This document shows positions 1-10,124 of a DNA stretch of 28,695 bases, one piece after another. The translations under genes and the position numbers were made by a program. The first letter of the stretch is position 1; each line of letters begins with the position of its first letter. The notes beneath the pieces are model-generated. The model did no database searches and had not been told where the DNA came from. It saw nothing but the letters and a program-made list of their open reading frames with translations. Origin of the DNA: a virus (Duplodnaviria; Caudoviricetes); IMG/VR virus record IMGVR_UViG_3300046010_004172, positions 1 through 28,695 of that record. The stretch is one strand, 5' to 3'.

Positions 1-3000
1 ATGCGGGCTTCGGTCGGCTCCTTGATGATGCCGGCAATATCCGTGTCCAGCATGCCCTGATCGATCAACTCCTGCGCCACCTTGGCCGGTTGCGTGATTG
101 CATCCGGATTGACCGCATACCAGAAGCCCGGATTGGGGTTCTGTATGGCCAGGCCATAGAGCGACAACGCCACCCGGTTCTTTTCGGCACGGGTGATGAC
201 CCGCTCGCGCTGCATCATGACCTGCGCCAGGATGTCGGCAGCGGCTTTTCCGGAGCCGGTACGGCGCTTGCTGGCCGGTCCCTTGACCGAGAAACCTTGC
301 CCCGTGCCCATGCCGCGCTCGGAGATCTCTGCGCTTTCACGCTGCAGCGGGATGTAATGCTGGTAGGCCGCTTCCCAGGCGTCGATGGTCTCCTGGGTTT
401 CCAGGCCTTCACGTACTAACAGGGCACGGGTTTCACGGAGGATCGCATCCACCTGGTTGGCAATCGCCTCCAGATCGGTGCGCACGCCCGCCGGCAGATT
501 GGCCAGATAATCCAGCGCATCCTGCGTCTTGATGCCAGAGCCGCCATCCGGGAACTGGTCCGGATTAACCCGAGCGTAATAGTCGTTGGCTTCCGGTGCG
601 TGACGGTTCCACAGATAGGTTTCCAGGTCACCGATGCTGATGCCGCGAGTCGACATGGCGTCCAGTAGCGGCTTGACCTCATTGACCTTGAAGTTGTTGG
701 TCTCGTATTCGGCCTTGCCGTGGTAGAGCGTTTCCTTTTGATAGGGATTCCAGGCATCCGAGGCATTGAGCTTTTCGACCACGCGCTTGGTGTCGATCTG
801 CTTGTCCGCCAGTTTGTAGATCCAGTCGTCCAGCTTGGCTTCGTCGGGCGCAGTCCAGTTCACCAGGGGCGTCTGGCCCAATACATTCTTGCGAGAAGAG
901 AACGGCGCATCCGGCTCGGCCACCATCATGCCATTACCCATACCACCACCACGGGCCAGCAGGGTTTGCTCGCGCAGGTAGTCGAATTCCGGGCTGGTGT
1001 CCGCCGTCACTCTGGGTACGTTGCGGCCACGAACCACGAACGGATCCGACATCCCGTAGGCGCCAATCTGCTCCGCCAGGCTACTGTAGTCGCCGTCCTC
1101 ATTGATGTGGATGGAGTCCATCACCAGGCCAGTCATTTTCATCAGAGCCGTGCGATCGGTCCCCACCGCAAAGGCCTTGGCGCCATTCAATGCTTTCAGC
1201 GCCTTGCGAATGCGCAGGGTGCGTCTTGATTGGCTGCTATCCTTGATGACGGATGACGGGATCGTCGTGACACCAAGCACCTTTTGGCTGGCCGCCACGG
1301 CAATCAGGGTCACCGCATCATTGTCGACCTCAATTTTCTTGGCTACATCCATCAGCGTCGCTGGGTTGTTGATGGTGTGGCTGGAATACTCGTTGGCCTT
1401 GTAGGGGGATACCTGCCCGAAGTCCTTTTCGTAGACGGCTACATTGCCATCTGGATAAATGTAACCGTACCGGTTGGTGTCGATGATGACGTGACCATTG
1501 CTGATCAGGTTCAGATCCTGCTCAAACTTCTTGGTCAGATTCACGTCCGCGTTCGACGGCATCGGGTTGGTCGACGGGTGGTTGTGCAACATGTAATAGC
1601 TGACAGCACCCGCTTTGCTGGCCGCCTTGGCCAGGTCCGTCAGGTACTTGTCGATGTCGCTGCCGACGATAACGGCAGAAGAGGATGGCAGCCTGCTGGA
1701 CAGGCCTACCTGGGAGACGATCTTTCCCTGTTGATCAAGGAAGAACAGGCGGAAGGTCTCGAAGCGCGGGTCACGGTAGACCTGCGCCAGGGTAGCGACG
1801 TCTTCTCTTGAATTTACGGTGTGTCCGACCAGGCTGACGCGCTGTCGGGCGGCGTAGGTGTCGGCAAGTCGGCGACCCAATACTCCCCGATCGGACCCCC
1901 GCAGAGACTCAACGGCGGCGGCTGCAGCTCGCTTCGCTGCCTGAGTCTTCGGCCCTGACTGTCCAGCCGGATCAGCATCAAGGAAGAGGTCGAGTTGTTG
2001 TCTGAAGAGGTCATCTTGTAATGGCTCCTGCAGGATGTTGCCCGTATCGGTTCCGAATGTACCACGATTATCCACCGACTTGATCTGGTTTGAGGTGAAC
2101 ACCGTGTAGGTGGTCGTGGTCGGCGTACCGCGTCCGTTGTTGTAATCATCCTTGACGTTGCGGATGATGGCGCCGTCATGTCCGCCAGCGCGTGCCTGCT
2201 CGATGACGTTGCTGGTTTTGCCGAGGTTCTGCGCGTCCCGCCATGTCTTGCCGCCTGCATCAATTTCCAGCGGATTCCTGAGATTCAGGAACGCATCCAG
2301 GACGCCTGGCTCTGCATTTTGATAGTCAAACGCCCGCCGATCATCCGCGTAGGAATTGGCGGTTTTCTTGGAAGAGGCGAACCAGTAAGCCCCTTCCCGG
2401 TAGCCGAAACCATAACGCTCGTACAGGGTCTTGAAGGTCGCGTCGTCCGCCATGAACCGCAAGTCGGGTGCGCCGTGATGTACGACACGCGGTTCACCGT
2501 TTTCGTCAGTCACCATGGAGACGGCAGGTATGGCTCCCTCTTCCTTGGCGTTGATGGCGTCGATCAATTCGCCTACACTAGTCTTATGGGGAAGGGCGAG
2601 CGCAGGCCCGGTGCCGGTTGACTGTACGATGGGATTAGAGCGCGAGCGTCCTGCGTATTTGGCCGCAACCGGCATCACCTCCATATCCACGATTTCATGA
2701 ACATAGAACTTGCGATGCTTGCCGCGCGGCAAGTCGTCGTGGTCTTTGATCGTGAGCTTTACTGCAAAAAGATCATCGCCATATTGCAGTGGGGCAATAA
2801 ATTTGTGAACGCCAAGGATGTTGGTGTCGTCTCCGGAATCAGGTTCTGAGGCTACTGGGACGCTTACCCTGATAATGGCCGGCATTTCATGTAATGCCGC
2901 CAAATGTATTCTTGCGTCGTCGCTTTTTGTGATTGCCGTACCACTGGTCGCCTTGTGCGTCATCACCCGCTTTGACACGATCAGTTTGTCTCCTGTCGCC

Positions 3001-6000
3001 TTGTTCAGCCAGCCATCGCTATTTGCTAGATTCTTGACGGCCCATGCGCGCGCGTCATCAACACTACCTCTAAAGTAATCTTCAGCCAAAACAACCGGTG
3101 ACATGGCTTGGTTTTTGTCGGCCTCAAAATCCCCAAACCACGCCTTGAATCGTGGTGTCCGCACCATCACCCATTGCTGCTCGGTTAGCTTGGATGATTT
3201 GCCGTTGGGCGCCTTCATCCACTGCGGCGTGCTCTCGTAACGGGCTTTGGTGTCCTCGTATTCTTTCTGTAGCTGCTGCTCGGTCGGTTCTCCGCGACTA
3301 AACTTTGCGGTGATCTCGACATCATCATCCGAGAAAATCACGTAGTTCATCTTGTCGCCGGTCTTGCCACCCGTCTGCCCCTCGGCGGGATAGCGAATGC
3401 CGCGTATGCCGAGCGAGTGCAGGTATTCGGAGGCGGCCTGGTCGGAACCCTGGACGACAGATAGCGAACCATAGAGTCCTTCACCGATCAGCACGTCATC
3501 CCGAACTGGCTTGATTGAAATGCCACTGCTCGGCTCATTAGCCTCCACGAATTGACGCACCTTCTTTATGACGCGCCTGACCTTCTCACTCTGCTCACTC
3601 AGCGGCTTGTGCCAGTCCAGGTATTCGTCCTCGGCGGGGGCGAGTTCGACTTGGTAGAGTTTGCCTTTATCTGTGTTGACCTGTACGGCTTCGCTCTTGG
3701 CTTTTGCTATAGCCTCCTTGAAAATAGGCTTCCAATTCTTGAATGCCCCTTTGGCCCGACTTCTTAATTCACTGACAAGGAGCGCTTGCGACTTAAAGCC
3801 TTTTCCAATGCCGGTATAGGCGTCCATGATGATCCGATCAACATCGGACGCATCACTATATTCAGACTGAGTGTTACTGAACTCTTTCCCATCAATCAAT
3901 AAAGTTGATTGTTGGCCAGCCAGCTTGTCCCTGTACCACTCACCTACTTCTTTGTCGCTGGAAAAGTACAGGCCATAACCGAAAGCCTGCGCGCCCTCGC
4001 CCGTGCCAATCTTGCTGGTGCTGAACTTGTCGAAGTCATGCGGGCCACCATGCCAGGCCACCATAAACATCGCCTGCCCCTTGCCGGGCTTTGTATTGCC
4101 CTGCGCAGCTCTGTGGATGGAGCGCAATAGATAGGCCAGATCCGCATCATTGAACTGGGCCAGCTTGACGAAGCCGCGCTGGTTCATCCAGTTACGGATG
4201 GCCCCGTAGAATTCCTGAATGGCGGTTTTGATCTTCTGCGGCAGGCTGGCATAGGCCTTCTTGCCCTGCACATGCGCCAGGAACTCGTCCACCAGGTAGC
4301 TGAACCGCTGGGTATCGCTAATCTTGCCATCCTTGCGCAATTCATCGGCCGTCGTGAAGTAGGCGTCCATATTGACGCCCTGCTTCGCGGCCAAGTCACG
4401 GATACCATCGGCCCGGCCTAGCTTGAAATAGAGTCGGGTGTAGGCTTGGCGCTTGGCCTTGCCGAACAGCGCATTGGCGCCGTAGTGATTGGATTCGTGT
4501 AGGATGGATTCTTCCACCTGCGCGAGCGACTTATGCTGATCCGCGACCAGAAAAATCTCGTCCCCACGATGTACCGCGATGACCGTGCCCGTCGCTCCAT
4601 CTTTGGCCGCCTGCTGGCGTATATCCGCCGGCAGTTCGGCTTCGGTGTCTACCGTCCGAATACTTACGTTGGCACTGAGTCCAAGACGACGCCCGATGCG
4701 AGTGGCCGCACGCTCCACGGCTTCACGACCGAGGACGGCACCCACTTTCTGCTGACCCGCCCGCCGCGCCTGCCTAAATAAGGGCAAGCCGCCCATGACC
4801 TTCTCTCGCATGGCGGGGGTGATAGTGAATGCCGGCTGCTCTGACTGGAACCCATAAACGTATTTCGCCGCCGCCGCTATTTCGTCCTTCTTTGCTGCCG
4901 GGTAGGCTTTCTCCATGCCGGAAATAGCCTCATCAAGAGATGATCCGCCCTCAAGAAAACTCTCGGCGGCATAGCGATACGCGCTATCGCCTTTGTATGT
5001 TTCTGCCGGAATGACAGATATATTGGCAGTCCCCACGCGCCCTCCGCCCAGCTTCTTCAGGACTTCATTGGCGACGGAGGGGACAATCTTATCGTAGAAG
5101 GTGCGCATGCCTTCGCCGCCGACTTTTAAGCCTTCTCCGGAAAACCCGCCGGAGTAAATGCCTCTATCAATGCTTGATCGTATTTTGTCGCCCAGTTCCT
5201 TGCCTATGTAGTCATCAACCCTGGTTGATGGCATGGTTTCATTGATGAGATAGTTGTCGTCAAACCCTTTGGCTTGCAGCAACACGTTGTCCTTATCTGT
5301 GTTTTCCCACGTTATGCCCGCAACCTGCCTTCTCAGGTCATACAAATCCGCATTCTGCTGGCCGCTGGCAAAGGCGATCTTGTCGAAGCCGTTTTCTGCG
5401 GCATAGCGGATAGCTCTTTTAATTCCAAGCGATACGACGGGCTTTGGGTCGGCGCCGATGAAAGGACCTTGAGGTACGCCCTGCTTGATGCGAACGCTGA
5501 TGTTGTTGTCGGGTGACCAATTCTTTTCGGCATAAGCATTGGCGTCAGCTTCTGTGGCAAATGATTGAACGACTGCGCCGTTACTTTTTTCCACCCGATA
5601 CTGAACGCCAACGCCTTTTCTGCGAGCGTCTTGTTGCCAATCTGACTGCAGCTCAGTTATGAACAGAACCTTATTGCCATCAGCATCCTGACGTTCGTCG
5701 AAACGAAGGTGGGCAAGGACGTTGGGTTCGTCCCAGTGTGATGAGCGGTAGCTTGTCTGGTCCTTCGCTTTTGCGTATCCAGCCATAGCACCATTGGCCC
5801 CGCGCTCACTGGCCCACGTCAACACGCCTCCAGTTGTGCTGCTCCGGTATAGATCGCCATCAGGCTGCCGTATCACAAATAGCCCATCATCGTTTTCTTC
5901 GACGGACCAGCCTTCCTTTGCGTTAGCTCGTTCTGGCAGCGTAATCAACAGCTCCCGGTAGTTCTCGCCGCCGGGGATGGTGTACTGGCTGAATTTGGTG

Positions 6001-9000
6001 GGCCGATTCTGCTTGTAATCATCGACCAGTTCGGCGATCTCCGATCTCACATCATCTGACACATCGATGTCTTTGATGTCGAGACGGCCATTTACGAGAT
6101 CCCGAGCTGCATCGGTGCTGCGGTCGTAGCCGAGGTTGTCTTCCTGCTCCAGGACTTGCTTGAGCCTGGCAATTGACTCCGGCTTTTGCTCGCCCTTAAT
6201 CACCTCATTCACCTGCACCCCGTTATCCGCCAGGAATGCAGCAATGTCGGCCTTGCTGGTCTTCTCCTTGCCCTTCAGCTTGAGGAAATCCTCGATACCG
6301 GTCCAGGCGATCTCGTCGGCCTTGATGCCGAGCTTGGCCTGGTTGCTGAACAGCCAGGCTCTCCACTGCGAGCCAGGCATGCTGTCCTGCTTGGCGGTGT
6401 CGAAACCGCGAGCGAGCTGGGAGTAGAAGGTGGGTGCACGACTGAATCGAATCTGATCCTGCCGGTTATCCTGCGCAAACAGGCCATCATCGGCCGGCGG
6501 TGCGTTGTTGGCGTTGCGCCGGCGCTGGCCTTCGCGCTGCGCTTCGGCTAGGGCTTCGCGGTCGGTGTTGGCGCGGTCGGCGGAGGTGGGTTCTCCGAAG
6601 AGTCCTGATTGAGCTTGCGCAGTTTCCGCAAGGTTATCCGGTCCTGCAGGCTGAGTGGCTGCTTCTTGAGGATTGCTTGAAACAGACTTCCCCCTGCTTC
6701 GCTTTGCCAGATTTTGTTGGCCTCTTCTTTCACGGTAGTTCTCCAGGCGTTTAACCAGATCTTCACGGGTGGCCCGTGGCGTTTCGCCGAACATATCGGT
6801 GGTGTCGCGGGTGGCTTCGTTATACGTGAAGTCCGCAAAGTCCGACAAGTCCTCGATGACCGCCTTGTTGCTGCGCGGGTTATCGGCAAACAGCCGGATG
6901 ATGTCATAGGCTCTGGGATCAATATCCAGATCCTGCTGCTCGGCAATCTGCTGCATGGTCAGATCGCGGCGCTTGCCGTTGATGATGGCCTTGGCTGCAT
7001 CCGCCAGCCAGGGACGGACATCAAACGCTCCCTGCCCTTTCAGTCGCGACACTTTCGGCGCCAACCGGGACAAAGTCGACATGACCAGCTTGGCTTCCGG
7101 GTCGACCGCCTGACTGTGCAGCCGGACCAACTCTTCGTTGTCGTAGGCTTTCTGGAAGACAGCGGAATTGAGTCGATCATGCGCCTGGCGATTGGGCGTG
7201 CCGTCCGCATCCAGTAAGCCGCCCTGCTCCGACTCCGGCATGGACCGCACAAACTGCAGCACGGTATTCCGGCCCAGTGTCCCGTCCTCGTCAAAGTCCA
7301 GCCCCGCCAGATCCAGTCGCTCCGCGTCGTTCTTAGCTTGCTCCACGGGTGACAGGCTGAGTCCGCCCGAGATATTCGATTCGTCACCGATGTCGGCGGT
7401 GATCTCGGGATCCGGCATGAGGCGCACCAGCACCGGGTTCTGCATGCCCTGAATGACTTCGGGGCTAATGCCATGCAGGTCATCCTGCTCCAGGTCGGCC
7501 CGGTACTGCTGGGCTGAGCCTTGTCGATAGGCTTTCTGCAGTCCAGCGATGCGGCCATTCCCGGCAATCGCGCGGGGTGCCTGGAGGGTTTGGTCACCAT
7601 ACTGGGCATTGACCGTGCCATCGGCATTGTTGGACGCCAGCACGCTGCCTGCTTCTACCACCGCATATTGAACGGGAATACGCCGCCCTTTGGCGGTGAC
7701 GGTGGTTTCCTTGCGGCCAAGCTGCGATTCCGGGACGGTGCCGCCCGCAATGACGGGCGCGCCTTCCGCGAAATTACGCGATGGACTCAATCGCAGATAA
7801 TCCGGATTGCCGGCAATGCTCTGCATCTGCTGGACCGAAGCCGGATTGGACCGGGTGCGGTTTTGCAGGATAGGGGTTAATGCAGGCTGGCCGACAGGAT
7901 CGACGGCCGCTGATGCGGGGGCAACGCCTCCGCCATCTCGATCAGGCTGTCCGCTCTCAAGTCGTACTCCTGCATCTCCAGTGCCCACTCCAGTTCCTGG
8001 TTCTGCTCCCGGAGCGAGATCAGTTCCTGCTGTAGCGCCTGCAACATTGCTTCCAATGCTTCCCGTGGGATTAGTGGCATTTAGCAGCCCTTCTTGCCCG
8101 GCCGTACTGGTTTCTTGGTTTTGCCTTTCATTGGCGATCTCCTGTGTGGGTGGAACTTCAAACGCATCGAGCGCGTCTTGCGCGTCGGTGAAGGTGCTAT
8201 GGGTCTGGCCCTGCGGATCGAGGATGGCGATGCGGCCGTCACCCAGATCATTGAGCGTGTAGCCCTGCTCCTTGAGCGAACCTAGCCCCGGCGTCGTGGC
8301 GGCAGGGTCGGGCGTGGGTTGGATTTCTTCGGCGCTTCCTGCTTGTCCTGCTTGTCCTGCAGGCGGCGCACTTGCGCTAATGGGATCTTGGGCATCAGTG
8401 GCTCCTGGTATGCCGGTGGAGGAAATGGTGGTGTCTTCGGGCTGGTCGGCCGGCATCGTCGCTGCTGCGGCAAGGCGCTGAGCCATGATGTCGCGGGCCT
8501 GCTTGGCGCGCTCCATGCCCGCTAGATTGGGATCGGTCTCGTTCTTCAGAATCTCCATGAACATGGGATTCTTGTTGTAGAGCGACTCGATCTTGTTCTC
8601 AGATGACCAGCGCTTGGCCGCTGCATCCGCCGCCTTTCCAAGCAGCACCTGGCCGCCGGTGCCCACTAAGGTGGCAACAGCCGTCTGCATCGCCGCAGAC
8701 GGGCGCTCAGCTATGAACTCCTTGGCTGTCTTGTCTGGGTTCAGCTCAACCCACTTGTCGAGATCCTGCAGGAATGTGGCAGCCTGCTCGCCCAGCATTT
8801 CAGGGACCAGCTGTTTGGCAAAGGTTTTCCAGAGCGCGTCGTTCGCTTTGATGCTGCCCAGCAGCTTGCTCATCGGGATGGCCTCAGTCCCCACCTCGAT
8901 AATGCCCTGCGTCGTCCCGTACAGCGCGGCTCGCTCAGGGCTTTTGCCGGCATCACGCGCTTCACCGTAGGACTGCCCGCCCGTCATCACGCCCATCGGG

Positions 9001-10124
9001 CCAAGCGCCATGAGCGGATTGCCCGTAACGACGGCCGCCGGAATTGTCATCAGGTTCTGGGTGATCGACTGCATGCCGGAGTACACGCCCGCCGCCAGGT
9101 CACTGTCCGCTTTTGGGGTCAGCCTTTCGGCAATGCTTTTCTGGCCTTGACGCGCTTTACTGTAGGTCTGAGCCAGCTGCTGCACTGGATCCTGCACGCC
9201 AAAGGCGTTAAAGACGGGTCCCGTCAGATATTTGTTGGTGGCTTCGGCGCCGGCCTGCAAAGTACCAAGAACGCCTTCACTGCCCCGATAAACACCGGAC
9301 AGCGCTGCGGATCCAAGATTCTTGGCGGTCTGGCCAGGGTTATTGACCACGCTTTTCGGATCCATCACCTGGTTGTAGGCGAAATCCTCCACCGCATTTC
9401 CGGCATCGGTCAGAAGATTCTTGCCGCGCTGCAGGAGCGAAGGCGGTTCAACGGGCGCTTGGGTCGGTCTGGGGGTTGCTGTCTGCGGCTGGCCGCTATC
9501 CGGTTTGCCCGCGACTGCATCCGCCACCTGAGCACCCACTTCACCATCCGGCACAAAGCCCTGCAGATCCAGTGGGCCAGCCTCTGGCGATTCTGGTGCT
9601 ATATCGGCACTCCCAAACGCCATCATCAGCTTGCGCGCATTGCGACGACGGGATCCGGTGGCGGCAACGCCGGGTCGCTCATATCCGGCCATAAAGGCAT
9701 CGGACGCTTCTTGATAATTGGTGGCCTGCTTGAGCTGCTCCAGGGCCGGCCGTTCGGTGGTCAGCAGCTCCTGCTTCAGGAACTGATAGTTGGCCTCCTC
9801 TGAATTGATATCCAAGCCCTTGTCGCGGGCAAAGGCTTCAAATTGCTGGCGACGTGGCCCGGTCCATTGCGCCCATCCATAGCCGCCACGGGATCCTGCC
9901 ACCGTCGGCTGGATCTCCTGCATATTCTTGAACCAGCCGGTCTCGGTGGCCAGATTGCCCACCACGCCGGCCGCATGATGCGGCTGCAGCTTTAAGTCGG
10001 GGTCGGTCGACAGTCGCTGCATGACCGACAGGCCAAGCCCGATACCCTGCTGCTTATCAGGCGCGGGGGCGGCATCAGATTCGGGTAGGCGCAAGCCGCC
10101 GTCAACAATGTCAAATACTGGCAT
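1..10124 (-). CDS. Giant polyvalent internal virion/ejection protein (>3370 aa, 3'-truncated by the window edge)
   Basis: ATG at 10124, 3 nt after the stop of the 463-aa gene. Hand translation stays open to the window edge (MPVFDIVDGG...DTDIAGIIKEPTEAR), which explains its absence from the ORF track. Motifs: AAGVVGNLATETG/GYGWAQWTG/YERPG (tail lysozyme), GNGRIAGL (DdrB-ParB), ELQSDW, HESNH, WHGGP and YHGAP (ART-like), HNHPSTNPMPSNAD (JAB). Confidence 0.93.
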   Translation of the reverse strand, partial: MPVFDIVDGGLRLPESDAAPAPDKQQGIGLGLSVMQRLSTDPDLKLQPHHAAGVVGNLATETGWFKNMQEIQPTVAGSRGGYGWAQWTGPRRQQFEAFARDKGLDINSEEANYQFLKQELLTTERPALEQLKQATNYQEASDAFMAGYERPGVAATGSRRRNARKLMMAFGSADIAPESPEAGPLDLQGFVPDGEVGAQVADAVAGKPDSGQPQTATPRPTQAPVEPPSLLQRGKNLLTDAGNAVEDFAYNQVMDPKSVVNNPGQTAKNLGSAALSGVYRGSEGVLGTLQAGAEATNKYLTGPVFNAFGVQDPVQQLAQTYSKARQGQKSIAERLTPKADSDLAAGVYSGMQSITQNLMTIPAAVVTGNPLMALGPMGVMTGGQSYGEARDAGKSPERAALYGTTQGIIEVGTEAIPMSKLLGSIKANDALWKTFAKQLVPEMLGEQAATFLQDLDKWVELNPDKTAKEFIAERPSAAMQTAVATLVGTGGQVLLGKAADAAAKRWSSENKIESLYNKNPMFMEILKNETDPNLAGMERAKQARDIMAQRLAAAATMPADQPEDTTISSTGIPGATDAQDPISASAPPAGQAGQAGSAEEIQPTPDPAATTPGLGSLKEQGYTLNDLGDGRIAILDPQGQTHSTFTDAQDALDAFEVPPTQEIANERQNQETSTAGQEGLLNATNPTGSIGSNVAGATAGTDLAPGAEPGTGVGTGDAGVRLESGQPDRDGGGVAPASAAVDPVGQPALTPILQNRTRSNPASVQQMQSIAGNPDYLRLSPSRNFAEGAPVIAGGTVPESQLGRKETTVTAKGRRIPVQYAVVEAGSVLASNNADGTVNAQYGDQTLQAPRAIAGNGRIAGLQKAYRQGSAQQYRADLEQDDLHGISPEVIQGMQNPVLVRLMPDPEITADIGDESNISGGLSLSPVEQAKNDAERLDLAGLDFDEDGTLGRNTVLQFVRSMPESEQGGLLDADGTPNRQAHDRLNSAVFQKAYDNEELVRLHSQAVDPEAKLVMSTLSRLAPKVSRLKGQGAFDVRPWLADAAKAIINGKRRDLTMQQIAEQQDLDIDPRAYDIIRLFADNPRSNKAVIEDLSDFADFTYNEATRDTTDMFGETPRATREDLVKRLENYRERRGQQNLAKRSRGKSVSSNPQEAATQPAGPDNLAETAQAQSGLFGEPTSADRANTDREALAEAQREGQRRRNANNAPPADDGLFAQDNRQDQIRFSRAPTFYSQLARGFDTAKQDSMPGSQWRAWLFSNQAKLGIKADEIAWTGIEDFLKLKGKEKTSKADIAAFLADNGVQVNEVIKGEQKPESIARLKQVLEQEDNLGYDRSTDAARDLVNGRLDIKDIDVSDDVRSEIAELVDDYKQNRPTKFSQYTIPGGENYRELLITLPERANAKEGWSVEENDDGLFVIRQPDGDLYRSSTTGGVLTWASERGANGAMAGYAKAKDQTSYRSSHWDEPNVLAHLRFDERQDADGNKVLFITELQSDWQQDARRKGVGVQYRVEKSNGAVVQSFATEADANAYAEKNWSPDNNISVRIKQGVPQGPFIGADPKPVVSLGIKRAIRYAAENGFDKIAFASGQQNADLYDLRRQVAGITWENTDKDNVLLQAKGFDDNYLINETMPSTRVDDYIGKELGDKIRSSIDRGIYSGGFSGEGLKVGGEGMRTFYDKIVPSVANEVLKKLGGGRVGTANISVIPAETYKGDSAYRYAAESFLEGGSSLDEAISGMEKAYPAAKKDEIAAAAKYVYGFQSEQPAFTITPAMREKVMGGLPLFRQARRAGQQKVGAVLGREAVERAATRIGRRLGLSANVSIRTVDTEAELPADIRQQAAKDGATGTVIAVHRGDEIFLVADQHKSLAQVEESILHESNHYGANALFGKAKRQAYTRLYFKLGRADGIRDLAAKQGVNMDAYFTTADELRKDGKISDTQRFSYLVDEFLAHVQGKKAYASLPQKIKTAIQEFYGAIRNWMNQRGFVKLAQFNDADLAYLLRSIHRAAQGNTKPGKGQAMFMVAWHGGPHDFDKFSTSKIGTGEGAQAFGYGLYFSSDKEVGEWYRDKLAGQQSTLLIDGKEFSNTQSEYSDASDVDRIIMDAYTGIGKGFKSQALLVSELRSRAKGAFKNWKPIFKEAIAKAKSEAVQVNTDKGKLYQVELAPAEDEYLDWHKPLSEQSEKVRRVIKKVRQFVEANEPSSGISIKPVRDDVLIGEGLYGSLSVVQGSDQAASEYLHSLGIRGIRYPAEGQTGGKTGDKMNYVIFSDDDVEITAKFSRGEPTEQQLQKEYEDTKARYESTPQWMKAPNGKSSKLTEQQWVMVRTPRFKAWFGDFEADKNQAMSPVVLAEDYFRGSVDDARAWAVKNLANSDGWLNKATGDKLIVSKRVMTHKATSGTAITKSDDARIHLAALHEMPAIIRVSVPVASEPDSGDDTNILGVHKFIAPLQYGDDLFAVKLTIKDHDDLPRGKHRKFYVHEIVDMEVMPVAAKYAGRSRSNPIVQSTGTGPALALPHKTSVGELIDAINAKEEGAIPAVSMVTDENGEPRVVHHGAPDLRFMADDATFKTLYERYGFGYREGAYWFASSKKTANSYADDRRAFDYQNAEPGVLDAFLNLRNPLEIDAGGKTWRDAQNLGKTSNVIEQARAGGHDGAIIRNVKDDYNNGRGTPTTTTYTVFTSNQIKSVDNRGTFGTDTGNILQEPLQDDLFRQQLDLFLDADPAGQSGPKTQAAKRAAAAAVESLRGSDRGVLGRRLADTYAARQRVSLVGHTVNSREDVATLAQVYRDPRFETFRLFFLDQQGKIVSQVGLSSRLPSSSAVIVGSDIDKYLTDLAKAASKAGAVSYYMLHNHPSTNPMPSNADVNLTKKFEQDLNLISNGHVIIDTNRYGYIYPDGNVAVYEKDFGQVSPYKANEYSSHTINNPATLMDVAKKIEVDNDAVTLIAVAASQKVLGVTTIPSSVIKDSSQSRRTLRIRKALKALNGAKAFAVGTDRTALMKMTGLVMDSIHINEDGDYSSLAEQIGAYGMSDPFVVRGRNVPRVTADTSPEFDYLREQTLLARGGGMGNGMMVAEPDAPFSSRKNVLGQTPLVNWTAPDEAKLDDWIYKLADKQIDTKRVVEKLNASDAWNPYQKETLYHGKAEYETNNFKVNEVKPLLDAMSTRGISIGDLETYLWNRHAPEANDYYARVNPDQFPDGGSGIKTQDALDYLANLPAGVRTDLEAIANQVDAILRETRALLVREGLETQETIDAWEAAYQHYIPLQRESAEISERGMGTGQGFSVKGPASKRRTGSGKAAADILAQVMMQRERVITRAEKNRVALSLYGLAIQNPNPGFWYAVNPDAITQPAKVAQELIDQGMLDTDIAGIIKEPTEAR
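1814..2014 (-). CDS. Possible overprinted small ORF (66 aa) in the +1 frame of the giant gene
   Basis: AGGAG at 2029-2025, 10-nt spacer, ATG at 2014 (MTSSDNNSTSSLMLIRLDSQG...WSDTP). Lies in the ART2-JAB linker. The SD could be a by-product of in-frame CAG-GAG codons. Confidence 0.3.
   Translation of the reverse strand: MTSSDNNSTSSLMLIRLDSQGRRLRQRSELQPPPLSLCGGPIGEYWVADLPTPTPPDSASAWSDTP
6548..6733 (-). CDS. Putative overprinted small ORF (61 aa) in the +1 frame of the giant gene
   Basis: GGAG at 6744-6741, 7-nt spacer, GTG at 6733: MKEEANKIWQSEAGGSLFQAILKKQPLSLQDRITLRKLRKLNQDSSENPPPPTAPTPTAKP. Lies in the low-complexity linker after the ParB region. Confidence 0.5.
   Translation of the reverse strand: MKEEANKIWQSEAGGSLFQAILKKQPLSLQDRITLRKLRKLNQDSSENPPPPTAPTPTAKP
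7877..8080 (-). CDS. Overprinted coiled-coil small protein (67 aa) in the +1 frame of the giant gene
   Basis: ATG directly follows the TAA of the 16-aa ORF. Codons in this frame are mostly G/C-ending (CAG CAG GAA CTG ATC TCG CTC CGG GAG CAG AAC), while the giant frame switches to A/T-ending codons (GCA GGA ACT GAT...GGA GCA GAA CCA GGA ACT GGA). Heptad-like LEAMLQALQQELISLREQNQELEWAL. Confidence 0.7.
   Translation of the reverse strand: MPLIPREALEAMLQALQQELISLREQNQELEWALEMQEYDLRADSLIEMAEALPPHQRPSILSASLH
8081..8131 (-). CDS. Overprinted 16-aa basic peptide MKGKTKKPVRPGKKGC
   Basis: AGGAG at 8143-8139, 7-nt spacer, ATG at 8131. Its TAA abuts the ATG of the 67-aa ORF (TAAATG). Confidence 0.55.
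   Translation of the reverse strand: MKGKTKKPVRPGKKGC
8282..8395 (-). CDS. Putative overprinted 37-aa basic peptide MPKIPLAQVRRLQDKQDKQEAPKKSNPRPTLPPRRRG
   Basis: AGGAG at 8406-8402, 6-nt spacer, ATG at 8395, TAG at 8284-8282. Same +1 frame, in a Pro/Ala/Gly linker of the giant ORF. Confidence 0.5.
   Translation of the reverse strand: MPKIPLAQVRRLQDKQDKQEAPKKSNPRPTLPPRRRG

Follow-up and report, generated by a model that had tools for sequence, protein, structure and literature searches.

Small genes very likely nested in the +1 frame of linkers in a giant polyvalent phage protein gene

In phage lambda, the late gene Rz1 is embedded out of frame in Rz and encodes the lipoprotein partner of its membrane-bound host; Rz1 is defined by a lipoprotein signal with a lipobox cysteine inside the membrane-anchored Rz. 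Among bacteria, comS (in B. subtilis srfA) and gndA (in E. coli gnd) are same-strand nested microprotein genes (PMC11230408). Each is a single small gene that lies wholly within a larger coding sequence in a shifted frame, and its homologues are nested at the equivalent site; comS is within the coding region of an activation domain and gndA in the 6PGD coding sequence (PMC11230408). A further example comes from actinophage methylases, in which the ShiLan domain is an HNH gene lying out of frame (PMC11855218). Read in the host frame, this gene appears as a loop free of stops; its product is an endonuclease, its distribution is as patchy as that of a homing element, and it lacks a Shine-Dalgarno sequence (SD) (PMC11855218).

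Phage polyvalent proteins with a DdrB-like ParB domain were described by Iyer et al. 2017 (PMC5512222). The main text of that paper gives zero matches to 'overlap' or 'linker' and describes no nested genes (PMC5512222), and no description of nested arrays in polyvalent genes was found in the open-access literature, to which our search was confined. In P1, iddB is annotated inside ddrB (PMC10695390), and is thus an ORF within a DdrB-ParB gene. It is antisense and lies over the ParB/helical coding region, and we rejected it as a precedent because the ORFs described below are on the same strand as their host.

Annotation treats each polyvalent phage protein as a single ORF, with linkers that count as filler. 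Here, we find in one such gene that the linkers very likely carry small, conserved genes in the +1 frame that annotation has missed. The gene is part of a 28.7-kb stretch of viral DNA, which was analysed as a whole and is called the window throughout. The minus strand of the window has a structural block with a major capsid protein (PF13252, phrog_334), two SU10 adaptors and phrog_511, and the giant ORF forms the end of this block, running from 10124 to the window edge. Pfam identifies Phage_lysozyme2 (residues 45-167), ddrB-ParB (752-901), LPD3, ART-PolyVal and RadC domains. With several conflict domains in one polypeptide among late virion genes, the giant fits the polyvalent class (PMC5512222), and its product is likely an ejection protein. 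In the AF2 model, the region preceding the nested ORF D falls into two parts, one ParB and one all-helical; this two-part model has no PDB match at E<=0.001 in a fold search.

The nearest relative, L044, is 98% identical over the ParB region, and the host of the window phage would be a member of the Methylococcaceae, judged solely from the assignment of L044. Despite this identity, the middle of the giant (window 6440-2030) is largely non-homologous to L044 and has a different module order; breakpoints cluster near 6437-6456 in other sequencing runs. Compared to L003, L005, L098 and L101, window 7877-7590 (minus strand) has ParB profile positions 2-46 and 51-94 in swapped order. The swap sets P1-type DdrB apart from the D-bearing clade and corresponds to a local rearrangement of the domain N-terminus.

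Table 1. Coordinates of the giant gene, its domains and the nested ORFs (window positions unless a locus is named)
Feature	Position	Strand	Remarks
Giant polyvalent virion protein gene	1..10124	-	3374 aa, open at window end; host frame of nested ORFs
DdrB-like ParB domain of giant (aa 752-901)	7422..7871	-	Pfam; AF2 hinge at model residues 170-173
All-helical domain 3' of ParB (about aa 924-1134)	6723..7355	-	AF2 model; last predicted helix overlaps SD of D
ORF A	8282..8395	-	37 aa, +1, basic, pI 11.7
AGGAG SD of A	8402..8406	-	6 nt spacing
ORF B	8081..8131	-	16 aa, +1, basic; weakest of the four
AGGAG SD of B	8139..8143	-	7 nt spacing
ORF C	7877..8080	-	67 aa, +1, acidic, pI 4.4, coiled-coil-like
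GGAG SD of D	6741..6744	-	7 nt spacing
ORF D	6548..6733	-	61 aa, +1, GTG start
ORF E, candidate fifth nested ORF	1814..2014	-	66 aa, +1, AGGAG-10-ATG; precedes RadC/JAB domain
phrog_16759-family nested +1 ORF	L027 3249-3392; L060 2401-2550		PHROG match

An earlier note on this sequence had listed four small ORFs in the +1 frame of the giant ORF (10124 to 1). All four (A to D, Table 1) are found on the minus strand at the coordinates and lengths that it gave, wholly inside the host ORF, in another frame and with the host frame intact. The SD spacings given for three of them are borne out as well (AGGAG-6-ATG for A, AGGAG-7-ATG for B, GGAG-7-GTG for D). As had been proposed, the ORFs fall in low-complexity linkers where the giant loses its third-position bias: A/G/P/S/T/Q/E/D residues make up 67-92% of the giant frame over A-D compared to 56% gene-wide, and giant GC3 is 0.47 (A), 0.47 (B), 0.34 (C) and 0.45 (D) compared to 0.73 in the ParB region. 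Giant GC3 falls to 0.42-0.48 near 5700, 3900 and 2900 as well, where no SD-led +1 ORF of at least 15 aa is listed.

The TAA-ATG coupling of B and C holds in the window, where the ATG of C directly follows the TAA of B, but it is lineage-specific. In L044, a further segment of 174 nt separates B from C, with a similar helical segment in L027, L029 and L060, and the coupling in the window results from the absence of this segment. The junction is covered by single contigs in sequencing runs X11 and X24 and is therefore not an assembly error.

The whole giant gene contains 10 SD-led +1 ORFs of at least 15 aa, with 10.6 +/- 3.2 expected from 200 synonymous-codon shuffles. Since this number is that of chance, the window by itself is no proof. 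Judged from sequence comparison, it is through conservation in relatives, and not through number, that A-D stand above chance.

We compared the substitutions between the window and L044 in both frames. In the +1 frame, silent/replacement changes are 3/0 for A, 3/1 for B, 7/8 for C and 5/1 for D; in the giant frame they are 0/3, 0/5, 2/9 and 1/5, respectively. The control regions have 45/14 in the giant frame and 7/55 in the +1 frame. Overall, 18 of the 28 changes to the +1 frame of A-D are silent compared to 7 of 62 in the controls (pooled p = 6e-7; single-ORF p values of 0.003 for A, 0.01 for B, 0.004 for C and 0.0004 for D). Two other SD-led +1 ORFs (7483-7040 and 7021-6959) show shadow-like changes and were rejected as genes; because they behave as shadows, the L044 test does discriminate. 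As for comS- and gndA-type genes, these patterns point to purifying selection in the nested frame itself, which is strong for D, well supported for C (a mixed pattern, with 8 replacement changes) and for A (few changes), and weak for B (likewise few changes).

For the wider comparison, ParB-region loci were gathered from viral contigs, genomes and GenBank phages, and an HMM of D built from 4 sequences was run over the six frames of 56 sources. This search yields 46 matches at iE<0.01 (the 4 seeds and near-copies counted), all in the +1 frame and none in the other five frames, located 376-395 codons from the start of the ParB match. Weaker matches are found at the same place in L033, L034, L041 and L052. 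Five of the 56 sources are cut off before or at the D site. Of the 51 loci that reach it, 50 have D in this one position, over a range of 43-98% in ParB identity and in several groups of proteobacteria. L028 has no match to the D HMM in any of the six frames and possibly carries a replaced or diverged nested gene. Just 3' of the helical domain of L028, about 70 codons of the +1 frame are free of stops, and GC at giant position 1 is high. In L012, ATA is found in place of the ATG start of D.

Frames were compared over D in 33 non-redundant loci (<90% identity). Left out were L019 and L035 (copies of L001 and L002), the truncated L016, L021, L042, L054 and L059, and also L003 and L005, which were handled separately. 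On the same DNA, identity is 0.338 in the +1 frame compared to 0.216 in the giant frame, and the +1 frame is ahead in 96% of the 528 pairs, which are non-independent. The ParB control shows the reverse, with 0.280 in the +1 frame and 0.543 in the giant frame. GC3 is higher in D's own frame than in the giant's in 33/33 loci, and the giant frame is open through D and 100 further codons in 32/33.

A conserved initiation signal of their own is another trait that the nested ORFs share with comS- and gndA-type genes. An SD lies 5-9 nt before the start of D in 26 of the 33 loci compared to 19 of 498 control starts, the former figure being somewhat inflated because the choice of start preferred the best SD among nearby candidates. 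In L040, D starts at an ATG without an SD. C has an SD in 4/6 cases (L006, L027, L029 and L060, with none clear in the window or L044), and A has one in all.

The AF2 model of D comprises helices at residues 3-10, 12-22 and 29-46 followed by a low-confidence Pro-rich tail (mean pLDDT 79), and a pattern of W, G and hydrophobic residues is kept. A fold search with D gives no match at E<=0.001 in PDB or BFVD; the best VIA match among 48,161 chains has a Z of 4.2 and consists of generic helices, and ESM Atlas gives no usable match. Neither A nor D matches Pfam/PHROG. At E<=0.001, the D profile recovers 130 cluster representatives, D is present in 3/401, 1/401 and 2/399 sampled genomes, and tblastn did not find it in plasmids. 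Dartukuta (L004, MW749009.1) is an isolated phage with a nested D, and its GenBank record annotates only the giant over the D homologue. Its label is that of a Bacillus phage, but in giant gene and nested D it is similar to proteobacterial prophages.

C has homologues in L044, L006, L027, L029 and L060, at 33-42% identity outside L044, and the +1 frame beats the giant frame in 6/6 pairs among four lineages. The C HMM matches only 5 of the 56 sources (+/-4 kb), which makes C clade-limited. Pfam/PHROG give a weak coiled-coil match only, and ESM Atlas only matches under 0.9. Upstream of C, a basic A-like ORF with an SD is found in 5/5 C-bearing lineages; these ORFs are alike mainly in their first 8-11 residues (29/66 vs 18/66 identities). 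B is confined to the window and L044, with no homologue beyond L044; a tail of the Lys-Lys-Gly-Cys type, similar to that of B, closes the A-like ORFs of L027 and L029. On this evidence D is almost certainly a real gene, C very probably one and A quite probably one, and for B the balance tips slightly towards a gene.

The description of these ORFs as a new system was too strong, as nested same-strand genes are of a known kind. Compared to comS and gndA, however, we find an array of several putative genes in the inter-domain linkers of a phage protein, with the nested frame the better conserved. In contrast to ShiLan, A-D have SDs (the SD of C being found in relatives) and no nuclease domain, and D is nearly fixed in its clade. 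A ShiLan-type endonuclease was rejected: A, C and D have no Pfam/PHROG nuclease match, D is predicted to be all-helical, and B (16 aa) is too short. Like Rz1, the nested ORFs would be phage late genes lying out of frame inside another, but A, C and D lack a cysteine or signal-like stretch and the host is a multidomain protein of >3,000 aa. In B, the only Cys is terminal and hydrophobic stretches are lacking, and no spanin Pfam family is matched; an embedded spanin of the Rz1 type was therefore also rejected.

Nested arrays recur in related giants. Across 39 loci (255 kb of giant ORF), there are 182 SD-led alternative ORFs, which are mostly single or shadows. Clustering them recovers D, C and the A-like ORFs together with further families with shifted GC3, as well as shadow families without such a shift. 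Four nested ORFs each are found in L027 and L060, before ParB or its place. One family of these two loci (Table 1) matches phrog_16759 and, over their first 48-50 positions, two virion-structural PHROGs; in phage BUCT555, its phrog_16759 relative is annotated as a normal CDS flanked by the packaging genes and the capsid gene. A tblastn search with the ORF of this family also matched several jumbo phages.

The earlier note missed a candidate fifth nested ORF in the window, E. Compared to L044, E has no change in 66 codons while the next 282 codons differ at 84. Over 10 loci, no stop occurs in 650 columns of its +1 frame compared to 45 in 1,160 columns downstream, GC3 falls in 10/10 loci, and silent variation is 0.33 vs 0.46. 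Over E, the giant frame is still more conserved than the +1 frame (0.54 vs 0.40). E is likely dual-coded and is probably a real gene.

The explanation that we prefer, and to which we give about an even chance, is that small +1 genes under selection in their own frame occupy the linkers of the giant, are predicted to be started internally and late, and act as small helpers of head assembly or cargo loading. The late mRNA would be read end to end in frame 0 to produce the giant. Ribosomes would also start at the internal SDs in the +1 frame, so that the small proteins would be co-expressed late with the giant. The substitution pattern shows that selection keeps the small proteins and that the giant tolerates an Ala/Gly/Pro/Gln-rich shadow; by its composition, the linker in the host frame is probably disordered.

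The role in head assembly or cargo loading is the least certain part of this explanation, and we put it forward tentatively. It derives from the late context, from the virion-linked family in the same arrays and from the use of D as an N-terminal module. The virion-linked family is none of the window's A-D, and the link consists in array membership in relatives. D is the in-frame N-terminus of three proteins (P0097, P0119 and P0130) that match phage families and are single-member clusters without name or context. We take the repeats of these three proteins to mark head cargo. No viral locus was found for P0130, and no longer D fusion was found among 8,000 candidates, which is weak evidence. 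Another called protein, P0015, has D twice in tandem.

More speculatively, and with the odds against it, such giants may be polycistronic in two frames, their domains alternating with linker shadows of head-loading genes. D would then be a capsid-targeting unit acting in trans (nested or free) or in cis (as the N-terminus of a cargo effector), and the block of domain and nested gene would recombine as a cassette. In the D tree (54 columns, 7/38 branches starred), the free D of L069 is beside the nested D of L026 and the fused forms are scattered. The idea that the giant captured older free genes was dropped as unproven, as the tree gives no order of free and nested forms.

Alternatively, with the nested genes still real, D would serve specifically as chaperone or inhibitor for the helical domain upstream of it, being produced from the mRNA of the giant and keeping the giant safe or soluble until packaging; this restricts to the helical domain what the earlier note had suggested for adjacent domains. 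We consider this unlikely, albeit the most serious of the alternatives. D lies 3-20 codons past the helical domain in the 50 of 51 loci, it is 3' of the helical part in 21/21 loci from D-only viral searches, and it stays when the ParB core is missing (L074, with profile positions 229-359 matched, and L093, with 176-370). Nevertheless, the SD of D lies within the last helix of the domain, so that this linkage is expected from the overlap alone. D is also absent after 6/6 distant DdrB-type domains (P1, D6, phiARM81mr, ctCJ8213, Piluca and Pun_Y3), and it heads other proteins. Finally, D is free-standing in L069 (G257:C280), downstream of a tRNA-Ser gene and with a GGAGG SD, and in L070 (G390:C39), near a contig end; in both, the giant-equivalent frame is closed over D. 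The D of L070 is near a tRNA-Thr gene, and L070 has integrase-like fragments too. A complex prediction for the ParB and helical domain with D gave 0.70, 0.00 and 0.00 in its runs, with controls not folded, and counts neither way on binding.

A and C are not tied to ParB either. The A+C pair is 2.6 kb upstream of ParB in L006, and in L060 it precedes a zincin-like segment on a contig that ends 529 nt after C. Taken with the persistence of D without the ParB core, its free-standing forms and its absence after distant DdrB-type domains, this argues against the service to the adjacent ParB domain that the earlier note had suggested and makes immunity to a ParB nuclease unlikely. A toxin-immunity pair with ParB as the toxin was rejected on the behaviour of D in L074, L093 and the six distant domains. 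What stands of the suggestion is the nested gene layer itself, with own-frame purifying selection and arrays that recur in related giants.

The small proteins might also be independent, late or host-directed products that use tolerant coding space and have no tie to the giant or the head, which we regard as rather improbable. Arrays vary between relatives, with several nested families in the 39 loci, A+C moves as a unit apart from ParB, and the free D of L069 sits beside a tRNA gene. However, the position of D is fixed over the whole range of ParB identity and hosts given above, and the sole nested family with a known match is virion-linked.

Still less probable, to a degree that leaves it little room, is that the +1 segments are reached by programmed frameshifting or act through translation itself (pacing or mRNA protection), the peptides mattering little. 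SD-like motifs are able to stimulate frameshifting, which counts for this alternative, as do the short length and low complexity of A and B and their poor conservation past the N-termini. But a +1 stop is found at most 10 codons upstream of the start of D in 23 of the 33 loci, favouring fresh initiation over entry by frameshift, and the start (ATG or GTG) is kept 5-9 nt from the SD; we accordingly rejected a programmed +1 frameshift product. The W/G/hydrophobic pattern and the three AF2 helices of D also speak for a peptide that matters.

That the ORFs are shadows of linker composition, their likeness a by-product of conserved DNA or of the giant frame, is the least credible explanation: the number of SD-led +1 ORFs equals the shuffle expectation and +1 shadows of ParB also cluster across loci, but the frame pattern is opposite to that of the controls and D homologues are found in L069 and L070, whose giant-equivalent frame is closed, and as in-frame parts of other proteins, which largely refutes it for D and leaves it possible for B and partly for A and E.

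If the nested genes, under our preferred explanation, are translated, deletions and domain swaps in giants would also strike hidden genes, and linker sequence could not be read as selected for the giant. Small candidates would also be gained for the loading of multi-thousand-residue proteins into the podovirus head.

Other nested ORFs are seen in the relatives. A further SD-led +1 family, absent from the window, is found in L027, L029, L038, L040 and L055, 1.8-3.4 kb after the start of the ParB match, with a GC3 of 0.77 in its own frame compared to 0.36 in the giant's. Other linkers hold isolated SD-led +1 ORFs whose GC3 is shifted and whose composition is protein-like, in L006 (399-686), L033 (at -332), L041 (at -200 and -1214), L044 (at +3463) and L058 (at +2902).
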